Below, piece by piece: positions 3,001 through 6,000 of a DNA stretch of 10,935 nt. The stretch is from a virus (Duplodnaviria > Heunggongvirae > Uroviricota > Caudoviricetes), in the IMG/VR virus record IMGVR_UViG_2534681940_000021; one strand, written 5' to 3'. The position numbers are program-made. The stretch's first letter is position 1. Every line of letters starts with the position of its first letter.

Positions 3001-6000
3001 GAACGGCAGCTGACGAAATGGGCAAAGCATGTTAGTAACGGCCTGAGCGTTCCGCCAGTACGGCGACAACTGGCGGCACCAAAACGCCCGTTGGGACCAA
3101 CGCCAATTGAGTTGCTGAAACAGGAGTATGAACGCCGGAAAGCGGCTGGTTTTGTCTGATTTGAGAAGTAATTTTTATCCGGAGGAAATTTTAATGGGAA
3201 CCGTATTGCATGCACTGAAAGCGATGGGTAAAGCCAATTCTGTTGAACTGGCGGCGCGGCTTGATATCAGCCGTGAAGAAGTTCTCAACGAACTGTGGGA
3301 ACTCAAAAAAAATGGCGTTGTTGATAAAACGGGTCACACCTGGTTTCTGGCTGTCGAAGGTGAATCCGGGGTAACCGAAGGGCAGGCACTACAACCTGAA
3401 GCGCCGGATGTGGTAACCGAAGAGGTCGCTCCAAAAGTTAGCGCTGACATGATGATTGAGTTTATCGCTCAGGAGGGGGCTAAAACCTGTGAAGAAATAG
3501 CGGGTAAGTTCGGTGTCAGTACTCGCAAGGTTGCTTCCACGCTGGCGGTGGTAACCGCAACGGGGCGGCTGGCACGCGTTAATCAGAACGGTAGATTTCG
3601 TTACTGCATGCCGGGCGATAATTTACCAGCAGAGCCGAAAGCCGCGCTGGTAACGGAAAATGATGGTAAAGCCTTTCCTCAGCCAGCAGGTGTTGCGTTA
3701 CCAGTCCGGGAAGCGGAAACACAGGAAGAAATGAAAACAGAAATCGTGGAAGACATTGTGAAGTTACAGCCATCGGTCACCGAAACGAAAGCAGATGACC
3801 TGATTCTACCATCGCTGCATGTGGCTAACCGAGAGCTGCGCCGGGCGAAAAGTGATGTGCAGAAGTGGGGGCGAGTCTGTGCCGCTCTGCGGGAACTGAA
3901 CAAACACAGGGATATTCTCCGGGATATTACCGCCACCAGAGAGCAGCAGTGAGTGGCTGGAAGACGTGGTGCCGGGCTGAAATCCTGATACTCCGGTAGT
4001 GTGCGGGAACGATGACAGTCGAAAGTATCGGCAGTCTGATTGGTCGTAGCGAGGCAGCGGTCAGAGCGAAAGCCCGGGATAAGGGAATAAGCCTGATGCT
4101 GCGGGGGGATTTTCGCCTGTCAGCCAAATTACCGTATAAAGCGATGGACTGCCTGAAGCGAAACGGACTGATTGGCGCTGAGGATAGTTTACGATGACCT
4201 GGCCTGAGGCATTCGTAACGGTAGGAGTTGCAATGGCGGTAGCGCTGGTGGTGTATTCGATTTGCCGCTGGGGTTGACGTAATTACTAATCCGGGGCTAT
4301 ATTCACCTCACGGTCGAGTTGACCGTCGGGATTGAGACCCCGGATAGAAACCGCGACAGACACACGCCGCGAGCGTGTTTTTTATTGTCGTATGCACGCG
4401 CACATCTGAATTATGGTGGGGCGTATAGGGGAGCTGAAAAGCTCGCCGGTTGGTTTCCCGGTAGTCTCAACCCTGTACGTCTCACCACCCGACGATTGAG
4501 ACCTGACGGTGGTGATAGTTTAGAAACCACCCTAGGGTGTCGTTATGACTACTCAAATCTCTGTTGAAACTCTTGTTGCTATTACTTACAACCAAATCCC
4601 TGTAATTACCACTGAGTTGTTGGCGCATCTTTATGGTGCAGACGTTAAGAATATTCAAAACAACTTTGCAAGGAATGTAGGGCGCTTTCAGATTGGAAAA
4701 CACTTTTTTAAGATCGAAGGTGAAGAGTTACGTGAATTGAAGCACAGACCATCTTTAAGTGGGTCTGTGAAAATCGCCCGTAACGTTCGTTCCCTCATCC
4801 TCTGGACAGAACGCGGAGCAGCCCGTCATGCAAAAATGCTCGAAACCGATCAGGCGTGGGAAGTATTCGAAAAACTCGAAGACAGTTACTTCAACCAGTA
4901 CGAGAAAGAGCGGGCTATGGGAAAAATGAATATCGATTTTCACCTGGCGATCCGTGACGATAAAACCGCCTTCATCCGAAGTTATGCGCCTGGCCAGCTG
5001 GTGACGGTTGAAGAAGCCCTGGCTTTGCTTAAATCGCGCGGATGGCTGGTAATGCCACGAGATGAACTGGCCGGAAAATTAATGGAGCTTTAACCGATTG
5101 AGTTAACCTTGATATGGGAATTCCCATATCGGGAGAACATTACCATCGGGGATAAAATGATTTGCGGGGAAAGAAGAGTTAAGTAGAATTGCTGCGGGTG
5201 CTTGAGGCTGTCTGCCTCGGGCATGCCGCCGTAAGGCAGACAGAGAAAAGCCCCAGTTAACATTACGCGTCTTGCAGGACGCTTAACATTAATCTGAGGC
5301 CAATTTCATGCTTTGCACATGTAGGTTAGCCTCTTACGTGCCGAAAGGCAAGGAGAAGCAGGCTATGAAGCAGCAAAAGGCGATGTTAATCGCCCTGATT
5401 GTCATCTGTTTAACCGTCATAGTGACGGCACTGGTAACGAGGAAAGACCTCTGCGAGGTACGAATCCGAACCGGCCAGACGGAGGTCGCTGTCTTCACAG
5501 CTTACGAACCTGAGGAGTAAGAGACCTGGCGAGGGAGAAATCCCTCGCCACCTCTGATGTGTCAGGCATCCTCAACGCACCCGCACTTAACCTGCTTCGG
5601 CGGGTTTTGTTGTATTAGAATATCAGGATATTACCTGGATCCCGTTTTTCTCGACAACTGAAAGAAGCCGAAGAGCTGCACCTCCCGGGCGTTTCACTCC
5701 TCGTTCCCAGTCTGATATCAGGTTTTTACTGACGTTGAGGTATCTGGCAAAAACAGGTTGAGACAGATGCTCTCGTTCTCGCAGTGCACGGATCCTTTCC
5801 GGAGACATTACCGGCGCAGGCTGAAGACAAGTTTCATCGAATTCGCGCATAGTTTGTTTTGTGATTGCACCGATATCATGGAGTGACTCCATCATTTCAT
5901 GTACAGATGCAAGTGCATCACTGCGGTAATTTTTACTCATTGGGTACCTCCGTGAACTGGCCTTGTTGAATCAATTGTGCCAGCTGTTCATCAGTAAGAT

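Follow-up and report, generated by a model that had tools for sequence, protein, structure and literature searches.

A homologue of the IsrK small RNA at the head of a candidate C4-type module for antirepressor control in a lambdoid prophage of EHEC

The segment between positions 4274 and 4383 of the DNA analysed here (a stretch of 10,935 nucleotides, hereafter the window) is best read as the head of an IsrK/C4-type module that governs an antirepressor in an EHEC lambdoid prophage: it would hold the module's promoter and its first RNA, the latter presumably competing for the C4 RNA; we put the probability of this reading at about three in four. On the evidence of its homologues, the transcribed part of the segment, 4310-4383, is a real small RNA (sRNA) gene, the counterpart of IsrK in a prophage of E. 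coli O157 and of a kind that is already known. It is because of comparative evidence, and not of features of the single sequence, that the unit is judged to be real: comparison with related loci establishes its family membership, the synteny of the locus, the conservation of its promoter and terminator and a three-way covariation of its pairing sites. An earlier note, made from this one sequence, had proposed a prophage gene for an sRNA, complete with promoter and terminator, and this proposal is now backed by the isrK match, the conserved promoter hexamers and the conserved terminator. The note had also described the unit as self-contained. It is not, both because it forms the 5' portion, ended by a terminator, of a predicted operon whose further members are a C4-type RNA and an antirepressor gene, and because its two single-stranded patches covary with partners located inside that operon.

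The small RNA unit and its operon

The earlier note had suggested a covariance search against Rfam, and this search was decisive. The isrK model (RF01394) covers exactly 4310-4383 with a score of 52.4 bits (gathering score 50, E 3.8e-9), and the match spans the full model, positions 1-77. The margin over the cut-off is slight; the IsrK of Gifsy-1 itself reaches 79.3 bits with the same model. A second model, c4-a1b1 (RF03163), gives 26.2 bits on the window (4297-4346), which is below its gathering score of 46.7, and gives 48.1 bits on Gifsy-1 and 51.0 bits on P1. Both the marginal isrK score and the subthreshold c4-a1b1 score are explained by the first hairpin of the unit, a minority variant that lacks the GCAAAAUC loop found in most other units. 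Where the note had recognized no named sRNA, there is an IsrK homologue whose locus is 85% identical to the isrK locus of Gifsy-1. The elements of the module are as follows.

4274..4303, + strand: predicted sigma-70 promoter, with -35 TTGACG (4274-4279), an 18-bp spacer and -10 TATATT (4298-4303)
4310..4383, + strand: IsrK-family sRNA, predicted primary transcript of 74 nt (full-length isrK match), starting 7 nt after the -10
4310..4326, + strand: hairpin 1, ACGGUC-GAGUU-GACCGU (predicted fold; minority variant)
4327..4343, + strand: hairpin 2, CGGG...CCCG (predicted fold), whose loop carries site a1, UUGAGAC (4332-4338)
4347..4352, + strand: site b1, GAAACC, in a single-stranded linker; complementary to b' (4452-4457)
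4362..4383, + strand: intrinsic terminator, ACACGC-CGCGA-GCGUGU plus a U-run (stem-loop 4362-4378, T's through 4383)
4409..4492, + strand: C4-type antisense RNA, counterpart of Gifsy-1 STnc1160 and P1 c4 (Rfam C4, RF01695, 70.5 bits, gathering score 45)
4413..4499, + strand: 28-codon ORF from a conserved AUG inside C4, the positional counterpart of Gifsy-1 orf45
4452-4457, + strand: site b', GGUUUC, in a hairpin loop of C4; complementary to b1 and b2
4464-4470, + strand: site a', GUCUCAA, single-stranded in C4; complementary to a1 and a2
4496..4502, + strand: site a2, UUGAGAC, in the ant leader; complementary to a'
4523..4529, + strand: site b2, GAAACCA, in the ant leader; complementary to b'
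4545..5093, + strand: antirepressor gene (ant), 182 aa, with an ORF6N domain (Pfam ORF6N, 69.2 bits; RefSeq "ORF6N domain-containing protein")

The near-consensus promoter reported earlier (TTGACG-18-TATATT) is present at 4274-4303 and agrees with the consensus at 10 of 12 positions; the clean intrinsic terminator was likewise recovered at 4362-4383. Considered singly, these signals carry little statistical weight: the 1.5-kb region holds one promoter-like site against 1.8 +/- 1.4 in shuffled sequences and two terminator-like sites against 1.4 +/- 1.3, neither of which is significant alone. Among the homologues, 72 of 74 distinct units retain both hexamers (-35 and -10); the spacer and all the upstream sequence diverge. 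The promoter aligns with PisrK of Gifsy-1, to which it is nearly identical. A terminator hairpin with its T-run occurs at this place in 145 of 148 units, a sample that was anchored on C4 and chosen independently of the terminator, and it is built from more than 40 different stem sequences with compensatory changes.

The module lies inside the early rightward operon, in the nin region, where O/P-like genes precede it and Q follows about 4 kb further on, and the stop codon of a small ORF just upstream overlaps the -35. The note had allowed for a hairpin that merely ends the upstream ORFs, in a unit lacking an independent promoter. Two observations speak against this scenario: homology to other phages starts at the -35 hexamer (query positions 71-75 of the search), and the module follows upstream genes that are unrelated among Gifsy-1, P1, the Stx phages and the prophage of the window.

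A transcript of ~74 nt with three stem-loops had been predicted, and the fold obtained here agrees with it (MFE -22.1 kcal/mol), although the z-score of 4310-4383 (-0.88) is not significant alone. The consensus fold of 67 diverse homologues has the same three hairpins, with compensatory changes in 9 of 13 pairs. Hairpin 1 occurs in 24 variants among the 74 units, nearly all of them foldable; the window's type is present in 7 of the 74.

Downstream of the terminator, the C4 RNA at 4409-4492 has a predicted MFE of -44.2 kcal/mol (z -5.86), and its score with the Rfam C4 model is comparable to that of P1 c4 (68.8 bits). The 28-codon ORF that begins within it ends 45 nt short of the start of ant (4545) and does not overlap the ant AUG. 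Site b2 precedes a Shine-Dalgarno-like AGGGUG by 4 nt and the ant AUG by 16 nt; it does not overlap the Shine-Dalgarno sequence but is near enough to fall within a ribosome footprint. The ant product is 60% identical to STM2616/AnrP of Gifsy-1 (E 6e-75).

Covariation of the pairing sites

In the window, a' is exactly complementary to a1 and to a2 over 7 nt each, and b' to b1 over 6 nt and to b2 over 7 nt. Three-way covariation is seen across the 74 units, and also in a 34-row alignment. The units present 17 a-types and 21 b-types in 33 combinations, and all four pairings are nonetheless kept in 72 of them, a total that was reached by 0 of 300 permutations of the partners. Between the sRNA and C4, 93.9% of the cells are paired and the covariation score is 0.549, whereas shifted registers give no more than 0.151 (0 of 500 shuffles); between C4 and the leader, the corresponding values are 83.7% and 0.472, as against at most 0.112 (again 0 of 500). 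Considered site by site, 98.7% of cells preserve the a1:a' pairing and 97.1% the a':a2 pairing, in each case with both-side changes at 6 of the 7 pairs, and b1 and b2 each covary with b'. As a single-sequence statistic, by comparison, the long duplex fold of C4 with the leader is not significant.

The comparison of these aligned units shows a three-way pairing system with many specificities, whose partners (short RNA, C4 RNA and antirepressor leader) evolve as a single whole. The differences between the window and Gifsy-1 have a corresponding distribution: they are concentrated in hairpin 1 and the six a/b patches, and the patches change together. In Gifsy-1, a is UUGGCGU (UUGAGAC in the window) and b is UCACC (GAAACC in the window), and the predicted cross-pairing is weak, with -17.5 and -20.3 kcal/mol for the cross pairs compared with -29.0 and -31.5 kcal/mol for the cognate duplexes. 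This joint evolution supports the view that the modules provide a prophage-specific, RNA-based immunity and control of induction. When modules that reside in the same genome were compared, 11 of 12 pairs differed in specificity, but random pairs share a type in only 9% of cases and the avoidance was not significant (P = 0.31), in a comparison where the automatic typing misread some of the loops.

Gifsy-1, P1 and other known systems

The closest described locus is that of the Salmonella prophage Gifsy-1, isrK-orf45(STnc1160)-anrP-isrJ (Padalon-Brauch 2008, PMC2330248; Hershko-Shalev 2016, PMC4825925). Its terminator is identical to that of the window, and it has the same gene order of promoter, terminated sRNA of 74-77 nt, C4-type RNA and ORF6N antirepressor. 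The two loci also share a complementarity of the middle of the sRNA to the downstream RNA, which corresponds to helix b-I of the Gifsy-1 model and to the a1:a' and b1:b' pairs of the window. There are, however, several differences. Hairpin 1 of the window has another stem and a shorter loop; isrJ is missing downstream; and the Gifsy-1 module is found immediately downstream of antQ rather than in the nin region. Moreover, orf45 and anrP of Gifsy-1 are coupled through an AUGA overlap, and the 28-codon ORF of the window is without that coupling. A 45-codon ORF that overlaps the ant AUG is present in only 8 of 150 units, and elsewhere the ORF has 3 to 72 codons or no stop. The orf45-ant coupling belongs to the mechanism of Gifsy-1 and is no general trait of the RNA family, and since the window lacks it the details of its mechanism may differ from those of Gifsy-1.

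The immI region of phages P1 and P7 was reportedly described by Citron and Schuster in 1990 and 1992. In P1 (record NC_005856) the elements follow in the same order as in the window, a1 b1 - c4 - a2 b2 - icd - ant, and the promoter P51b/P1c4 has the same place and form (TTGACC-17-TATAGT). As in the window, the second hairpin bears a1 in its loop and the linker contains b1, a' and b' occupy the same places in c4, and a2 b2 precede the first downstream ORF. The logic is shared as well: an antisense RNA holds the antirepressor off, c4 RNA repressing Ant synthesis in P1 (PMC8546580), and allele-specific a/b sequences give the heteroimmunity of P1 and P7. The resemblance is not complete, since the P1 hairpin that follows b1 is a weak one whose loop spans 12 nt and whose U-run is interrupted (35 bits with the isrK model, below the cut-off), and since b2 of P1 overlaps the icd ribosome-binding site. 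The downstream genes of P1 are icd and Ant1/Ant2, whereas in the window there is a nonconserved mini-ORF and the ORF6N antirepressor, with no icd-like ORF. The P1 promoter region also carries a C1 operator.

The CI RNA of satellite phage P4, with its seqA/seqC, was named as a structural analogue by Hershko-Shalev (2016; PMC4825925). The likeness is one of layout: a processed small RNA pairs with two sites, upstream and downstream in the same transcript, but the outcome in P4 is premature transcription termination of the replication genes and not antirepressor control.

DicF, a processing product of a long transcript with host targets such as the ftsZ mRNA, is likewise encoded in a lambdoid prophage, the defective Qin, and the earlier note had drawn an analogy with it. 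The two are indeed both prophage sRNAs, and the prophage of the window also carries dicB and ydfABC; the analogy ends there, as the RNAs have no relation in sequence or mechanism, and the Rfam search of the window gave no DicF match and no shared family. A partial resemblance (...AGTTGAC..CGGG) had led us to consider 24B_1, a microRNA-size RNA of the Stx phage Phi24B that is said to control d_ant, as a fragment of an IsrK-like hairpin. This candidate was rejected: the window contains no match to 24B_1 even when as many as 3 mismatches are allowed, and its own locus, within a hok/sok-like element downstream of lom, matches neither isrK nor C4.

Proposed mode of action and distribution of the module

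In the mechanism that we propose, the sigma-70 promoter would fire and most transcripts would end at the terminator, giving a 74-nt RNA that would display a1 in its hairpin loop and b1 in the single-stranded linker. A fraction of the transcripts would pass the terminator and extend over the C4-type RNA and the ant mRNA. The a' and b' sites of C4 would then bind a2 and b2, which closely precede the ribosome-binding site of ant, and ant would remain untranslated; within the long RNA, a' and b' could instead pair with a1 and b1 in a closed form. The short RNA, acting in trans, would supply extra copies of a1 and b1 that compete for a' and b' and so free the ant leader, whereupon the ORF6N antirepressor would be made and could inactivate the prophage repressor, encoded at 446-853 on the minus strand. 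By analogy with Gifsy-1, the copy in the window is presumably expressed, and its short RNA probably serves as the competitor, or decoy, that unlocks translation of the antirepressor. Repression in this copy would act directly at the ant ribosome-binding site, as we infer from the absence of translational coupling of the orf45 type. The Q gene of the prophage is frame-disrupted; the prophage may therefore be defective, and the module could be idle in this strain. In Gifsy-1, IsrK promotes prophage induction (PMC4825925). Constitutive coexpression of STnc1160 there made the toxicity of IsrK stronger, not weaker (PMC4825925), a result that is a poor fit to a simple repressor-titration model.

The same segment can be read otherwise. 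The short RNA could be a by-product without any function in trans, its hairpin being an attenuator that limits transcription into ant and stops read-through from the nin region, with a1 and b1 of importance only in cis, for the folding or processing of C4. The placement of the module within the early rightward operon, with a small-ORF stop on its -35, is in keeping with this; the hairpin of P1 is so weak that P1 must work with little termination; and in Gifsy-1 the cis mutations G28A and G31A raise basal anrP translation (PMC4825925). The strong terminator and its compensatory stem changes could be held against such a role, yet an attenuator explains them equally well. What makes this reading rather improbable is that the short RNA of Gifsy-1, when it is supplied in trans, increases anrP translation 139-fold, an effect that is abolished by single mutations in the trans RNA (PMC4825925, Tables 1B, 1F). 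The possibility that a small protein is encoded (by the TTG ORF 4319..4567 or by the 28-codon ORF in C4) and that the RNA structures are incidental seems to us extremely unlikely. Such ORFs exist mechanically, and orf45 of Gifsy-1 is translated; however, the Gifsy-1 study found conservation of the nucleotide and not of the amino-acid sequence (PMC4825925), and in the units compared here it is likewise structure and pairing sites, not codons, that are kept. The ORF from the C4 AUG is of very inconstant length, as described above, and in close relatives the stretch that runs from hairpin 1 to the end of b1 measures 45 to 51 nt, with length differences not divisible by 3; no frame is thus conserved across the sRNA. 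The earlier claim that the unit has no ORF consequently holds in substance, although the mechanical TTG ORF does cross it.

A free-standing, Hfq-dependent sRNA whose main task is to act in trans on host core-genome mRNAs, with C4 and ant as mere neighbors, is a reading compatible with the one we favor and, as its principal explanation, a shade less probable still than the attenuator. A unit with its own promoter and U-tailed terminator has the usual form of Hfq-type sRNAs, the Rfam name of the isrK family includes "Hfq binding", and other EHEC prophage sRNAs target core sRNAs or mRNAs (PMC4104026). To this extent the Hfq-type architecture that the note had described is upheld, by the family label and by the presence of promoter and terminator. 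As for direct Hfq data, EcOnc50, EcOnc33, EcOnc22 and EcOnc36 in the EHEC Sakai Hfq-CRAC list (Tree et al. 2014) are by their coordinates other loci, in a comparison confined to these four RNAs and with a screen that excluded peaks within 100 bp of genes. Against a host target stand the a1 and b1 sites, the sole variable single-stranded parts of the RNA, which in their 17 and 21 types change together with sites inside the module, whereas a conserved host target would hold them constant; in addition, the isrK promoter of Gifsy-1 drives the downstream operon (PMC4825925, Table 1A).

Related modules are present in 1357 of 5426 complete E. coli genomes, about a quarter, and in 278 phage records, many of them Stx-converting; they also occur in many genera of the Enterobacterales. 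There are several nearly identical copies per genome. Matches in GC-rich Actinomycetota, Chloroflexota and similar groups, encountered in a scan of genome contigs, were without a terminator and were discarded as chance. These broader comparative data leave the verdict unchanged: the finding is in itself a member of a described and already known family. What is specific to the window's copy, as far as its sequence reveals, is its own pairing specificity, the minority hairpin 1 and the lack of orf45-ant coupling.

It is tempting to generalize, and to regard the promoter-a1b1-terminator arrangement as a general anti-antisense decoy that titrates C4, with a and b as a two-part address of dozens of orthogonal values and with a prophage-specific antirepressor threshold; we advance this only tentatively and think it has distinctly less than an even chance of being correct. 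To our knowledge, the a1 b1 sites of P1 have no assigned role, and such a device would give them a function. Copies 79-88% identical to that of the window are located in Stx1a- and Stx2a-converting phages, and for this reason the switch, if it is a decoy device, could influence the induction of Shiga-toxin phages independently of RecA; should it operate in those phages, it would constitute a route to toxin-phage induction.

For the window itself, the analysis is of value chiefly because it corrects the annotation. In RefSeq, the interval from the pseudogene fragment to the ORF6N gene is without an annotated RNA gene, whereas it holds matches to two curated RNA families and belongs to a locus with all the elements of an antirepressor switch. 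In an Rfam-based annotation of EHEC EDL933, isrK had already been recorded twice and C4 once (PMC5331693).

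The sRNA gene in the window

Inspection of the sequence revealed a promoter, a predicted short transcript and an intrinsic terminator, together with short complementary sites (named as in phage P1) that link this sRNA to a second RNA, C4, and to the leader of the ant gene.

Features of the module
4274-4279, +: -35 hexamer TTGACG, found by sequence inspection
4298-4303, +: -10 hexamer TATATT, after an 18-bp spacer
4310-4383, +: predicted sRNA, 74 nt, starting about 7 nt past the -10
4332-4338, +: a1, UUGAGAC, in the sRNA, complement of a'
4347-4352, +: b1, GAAACC, in the sRNA, complement of b'
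4362-4378, +: intrinsic terminator ACACGC-CGCGA-GCGTGT, with T's through 4383
4452-4457, +: b', GGUUUC, in C4, complementary to b1 and b2
4464-4470, +: a', GUCUCAA, in C4, exactly complementary to a1 and a2
4496-4502, +: a2, UUGAGAC, in the ant leader, complement of a'
4523-4529, +: b2, GAAACCA, in the ant leader, complement of b', extended to 7 nt

The promoter hexamers match the consensus at 10 of 12 positions and the RNA 4310-4383 folds into three stem-loops (-22.1 kcal/mol); the promoter, terminator and three-stem-loop transcript described in the earlier note are all present. Taken singly, these features are unremarkable: one promoter-like site was found versus 1.8 ± 1.4 in shuffled sequences, two terminator-like sites versus 1.4 ± 1.3, and the fold z-score of the 74-nt RNA is -0.88. 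Hence, the case for a real gene rests on comparative evidence.

With Rfam's curated thresholds, four matches were obtained in the window, two of them relevant to this module. The earlier note had recognised no named sRNA, but the covariance search that it proposed returned isrK (RF01394) at exactly 4310-4383 (+), over the full model length (52.4 bits versus a gathering score of 50, E 3.8e-9). C4 antisense RNA (RF01695) follows at 4409-4492 (70.5 bits versus 45), and the next ORF, ant (4545-5093), carries a Pfam ORF6N domain and the RefSeq label "ORF6N domain-containing protein". The unit is a real prophage sRNA gene, as that note proposed; however, it already has a name and forms part of an RNA switch at the level of the operon.

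A lambdoid prophage of E. coli O157:H7 strain PV15-279 shares 99.5% identity with the window, and the two do not differ anywhere in 4200-4600. This prophage carries dicB, ydfABC, cI/cro-like and replication genes, hokD, a RelE-family toxin-antitoxin pair, rusA and Q. At the position of the sRNA, the RefSeq annotation has no RNA gene. Just upstream, a 27-codon hydrophobic ORF (MTWPEAFVTVGVAMAVALVVYSICRWG) at 4195-4277, where RefSeq has only a truncated pseudogene, overlaps with its start the stop of a 61-aa ORF (4012-4197) and with its TGA stop (4275-4277) the -35 of the IsrK promoter.

A module with co-varying pairing sites

Viral contigs scanned for the terminator sequence yielded 123 extracts representing 74 distinct units. 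These contain 17 a1 loop types and 21 b1 types in 33 combinations, and 72 of the 74 keep all four pairings, with at least 7 contiguous pairs in a1:a' and a2:a' and at least 5 in b1:b' and b2:b'; the two exceptions resemble recombinants or units that have lost ant. When partners were permuted among units, the observed total was reached in 0 of 300 trials for each pairing. Formal pair counts were made on a 34-row alignment with one representative per a/b combination. Between sRNA and C4, 93.9% of the cells are paired and 10 of 13 pairs have changed on both sides; the covariation score is 0.549, a value that 0 of 500 shuffles reach and that drops to 0.151 or less once the partner is shifted by 1-3 columns. 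The corresponding values for C4 and the leader are 83.7%, 11 of 14, and 0.472 versus at most 0.112 (0 of 500 shuffles). The a helices are cleaner (98.7% paired for sRNA:C4, 97.1% for C4:leader), the counts for the b helices being lowered by alignment gaps. Among the by-products of the analysis, the most useful is this comparative view of an RNA address that takes many values and co-varies three ways. On some viral contigs two complete modules of differing a/b specificity occur, separated by about 1.1-1.3 kb (L017, at 2426-2676 and 3566-3816; L143; L175).

The promoter was absent from every search pattern used to collect the units. The -35 is TTGACN in 72 of 74 and the -10 is TATATT in 61 and TATAGT in 9, while the spacer and all the DNA upstream of the -35 are unconserved. 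Homology to Stx and other phages starts at query position 71-75 (window 4270-4274), and the module follows antQ in Gifsy-1 and the sim genes in P1, lies within the nin region in the window and occupies other places in Stx phages. These sequence comparisons therefore indicate that the module starts at its own promoter and moves together with it. Since the first scan was terminator-anchored, it was repeated with the anchor in C4 and its downstream repeat. A hairpin plus T-run precedes C4 in 145 of the 148 distinct units so obtained, built from more than 40 different stems (e.g., ACACGC/GCGTGT, GACGC/GCGTC, AACCGC/GCGGTT and ACCACG/CGTGGT); the other three are two degenerate versions and one chance match. 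The consensus fold of 67 diverse sRNA regions has three hairpins, with compensatory changes in 9 of 13 pairs. The window shares its hairpin 1 (ACGGUC-GAGUU-GACCGU), a minority form, with few others (7 of 74 units have it), whereas a GCAAAAUC loop is present in most; this accounts for the marginal isrK score and for the sub-threshold score of the c4-a1b1 model (26.2 bits versus a cut-off of 46.7).

Gifsy-1, phage P1 and the probable mechanism

In the Salmonella prophage Gifsy-1, the gap downstream of antQ contains isrK (79.3 bits), C4 (69.0), c4-a1b1 (48.1), anrP (STM2616) and isrJ. Over window 4260-4580, mean column identity to this locus is 85%. The terminator and -10 hexamer are identical and the -35 nearly so (TTGACG versus TTGACA); identity between the two antirepressors is 60% (E 6e-75). 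Where the EHEC and Gifsy-1 copies differ, the changes are clustered in hairpin 1, the loop of hairpin 2, the linker behind it, two single-stranded C4 patches and two ant-leader patches. The a/b type of the window (UUGAGAC/GAAACC) is unlike that of Gifsy-1; moreover, the window module lies in the nin region about 4 kb upstream of Q, whereas the Gifsy-1 module adjoins antQ. Cognate duplexes are predicted at -29.0 and -31.5 kcal/mol and window-Gifsy cross pairs at -17.5 and -20.3, so the two modules should not cross-talk.

The Gifsy-1 isrK promoter produces the short terminated IsrK and a translationally silent read-through isrK-orf45-anrP mRNA (Hershko-Shalev et al. 2016, PMC4825925). When provided in trans, IsrK pairs with the orf45 region, from which STnc1160 is processed, and thereby increases translation of anrP 139-fold; AnrP in turn leads to antQ expression and prophage induction (PMC4825925). 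This orf45 region is what Rfam recognises as C4. Translational coupling through orf45 matters in Gifsy-1 (PMC4825925). Units generally conserve the AUG at transcript position +104, but a 45-codon ORF with an AUGA overlap occurs in only 8 of 150; in the others the ORF has 3 to 72 codons or stays open for 260 nt. The window unit belongs to a kind already known and has a specificity of its own. Coupling of this sort is unlikely in it, because its 28-codon ORF ends at 4497-4499, within a2 and 45 nt ahead of the ant AUG. More probably, C4 would act at b2 by directly occluding the vicinity of the ant RBS, as it does at the icd RBS of P1. In 61 of the 150 units (the contigs L124, L125, L128 and about 58 others) the C4 AUG frame is open for at least 260 nt, several in frame with ant; there, gene callers could annotate an N-terminally extended antirepressor overlapping the C4 RNA.

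The immI region of P1 has the order promoter P1c4 (TTGACC-17-TATAGT), two hairpins (c4-a1b1, 51 bits), c4 (68.8 bits), a2, b2, icd and ant. The c4 RNA, reportedly first described by Citron and Schuster in 1990 and 1992, is processed by RNase P. The annotated record places a1 in the second hairpin's loop and b1 in the linker, with a' and b' inside c4 and with a2 and b2 before icd, an arrangement that the window shares. The isrK model scores the P1 a1 b1 leader below its cut-off (35.1 bits; NC_005856 48230-48311, L344 231-312 in the retrieved copy), in an alignment that takes in a weak terminator-like hairpin (ACCGCAG, 12-nt loop, GCGGU) followed by AUUUUU between b1 and c4. From the shared layout and this hairpin, we infer that IsrK is the a1 b1 leader of a P1-immI-type module in which a strong terminator was acquired or kept; P1 might also make some short a1 b1 RNA. 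Ant synthesis in P1 is repressed by c4 RNA (PMC8546580; PMC8201110).

By the mechanism we favour, the promoter would yield mostly the short RNA, with C4 and the ant mRNA arising through read-through. C4 would hold ant off via a2 and b2, the short RNA would relieve the block by competing for a' and b', and the antirepressor would then act on the prophage repressor. In Salmonella, however, constitutive STnc1160 enhanced the toxicity of IsrK rather than relieving it (PMC4825925), an awkward result for a pure decoy model; the main target of the short RNA may therefore be the unprocessed long RNA, as the Gifsy-1 authors propose (PMC4825925). The terminator may also block read-through from upstream genes, which is compatible with the favoured mechanism. 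A primary role on host mRNAs is unlikely, because the exposed sites of the sRNA vary jointly with their partners inside the module, whereas a fixed host target would have kept them constant.

Distribution and neighbouring loci

A 401-nt query around the sRNA matched 1357 of 5426 complete E. coli genomes; in 152 the match spanned at least 80% of the query, and some genomes had up to 5 matching places. It also matched 278 phage records, including many Stx1a- and Stx2a-converting phages (79-88% identity). In a scan of one genome per species, architecture-positive copies were found in numerous genera of the Enterobacterales, including Escherichia, Shigella, Citrobacter, Kluyvera, Yersinia, Serratia, Pectobacterium, Brenneria, Sodalis, Pantoea, Erwinia and Arsenophonus, and in a few other Gammaproteobacteria. 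The c4 and c4-a1b1 motifs were catalogued in 2010 (PMC2864571), and an Rfam-based annotation of EHEC EDL933 counted isrK twice and C4 once (PMC5331693); our literature search on the E. coli copies found no experimental work.

The 20-nt "24B_1" RNA of phage Phi24B (HM208303 45711-45692, minus strand) is antisense to a sub-threshold sok/hok-leader match (38.4 bits versus 59, E 1e-6; HM208303 45636-45924, L002 837-1125 in the retrieved copy). It is situated about 75 nt upstream of a 46-aa ORF that carries no annotation and scores above the Pfam HOK_GEF threshold (33.2 bits versus 22). Its location is therefore the one expected for the Sok-like antisense RNA in a type I toxin-antitoxin locus; the two papers on 24B_1 nowhere mention hok or sok.

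Within the window, a hok/sok type I toxin-antitoxin locus (5196-5520) lies directly downstream of ant, with Rfam sok at 5196-5370 (117.3 bits) and a mok/hok ORF at 5308-5520 (Pfam HOK_GEF, 81.7 bits; annotated hokD); beyond it, on the minus strand, is a RelE/ParE-family toxin and HTH gene pair (5623-6304). Relative to PV15-279, the Q region (8494-9340) has gained 1 nt at 9108 and lost 1 nt at 9238, so that about 130 nt between them are out of frame and contain a stop at 9166-9168; this represents either a defective Q or homopolymer sequencing errors. Downstream of Q, Rfam STnc100 matches 10100-10274 (81.8 bits versus a cut-off of 47), which we take to be the site of the short PR' transcript of lambdoid phages.
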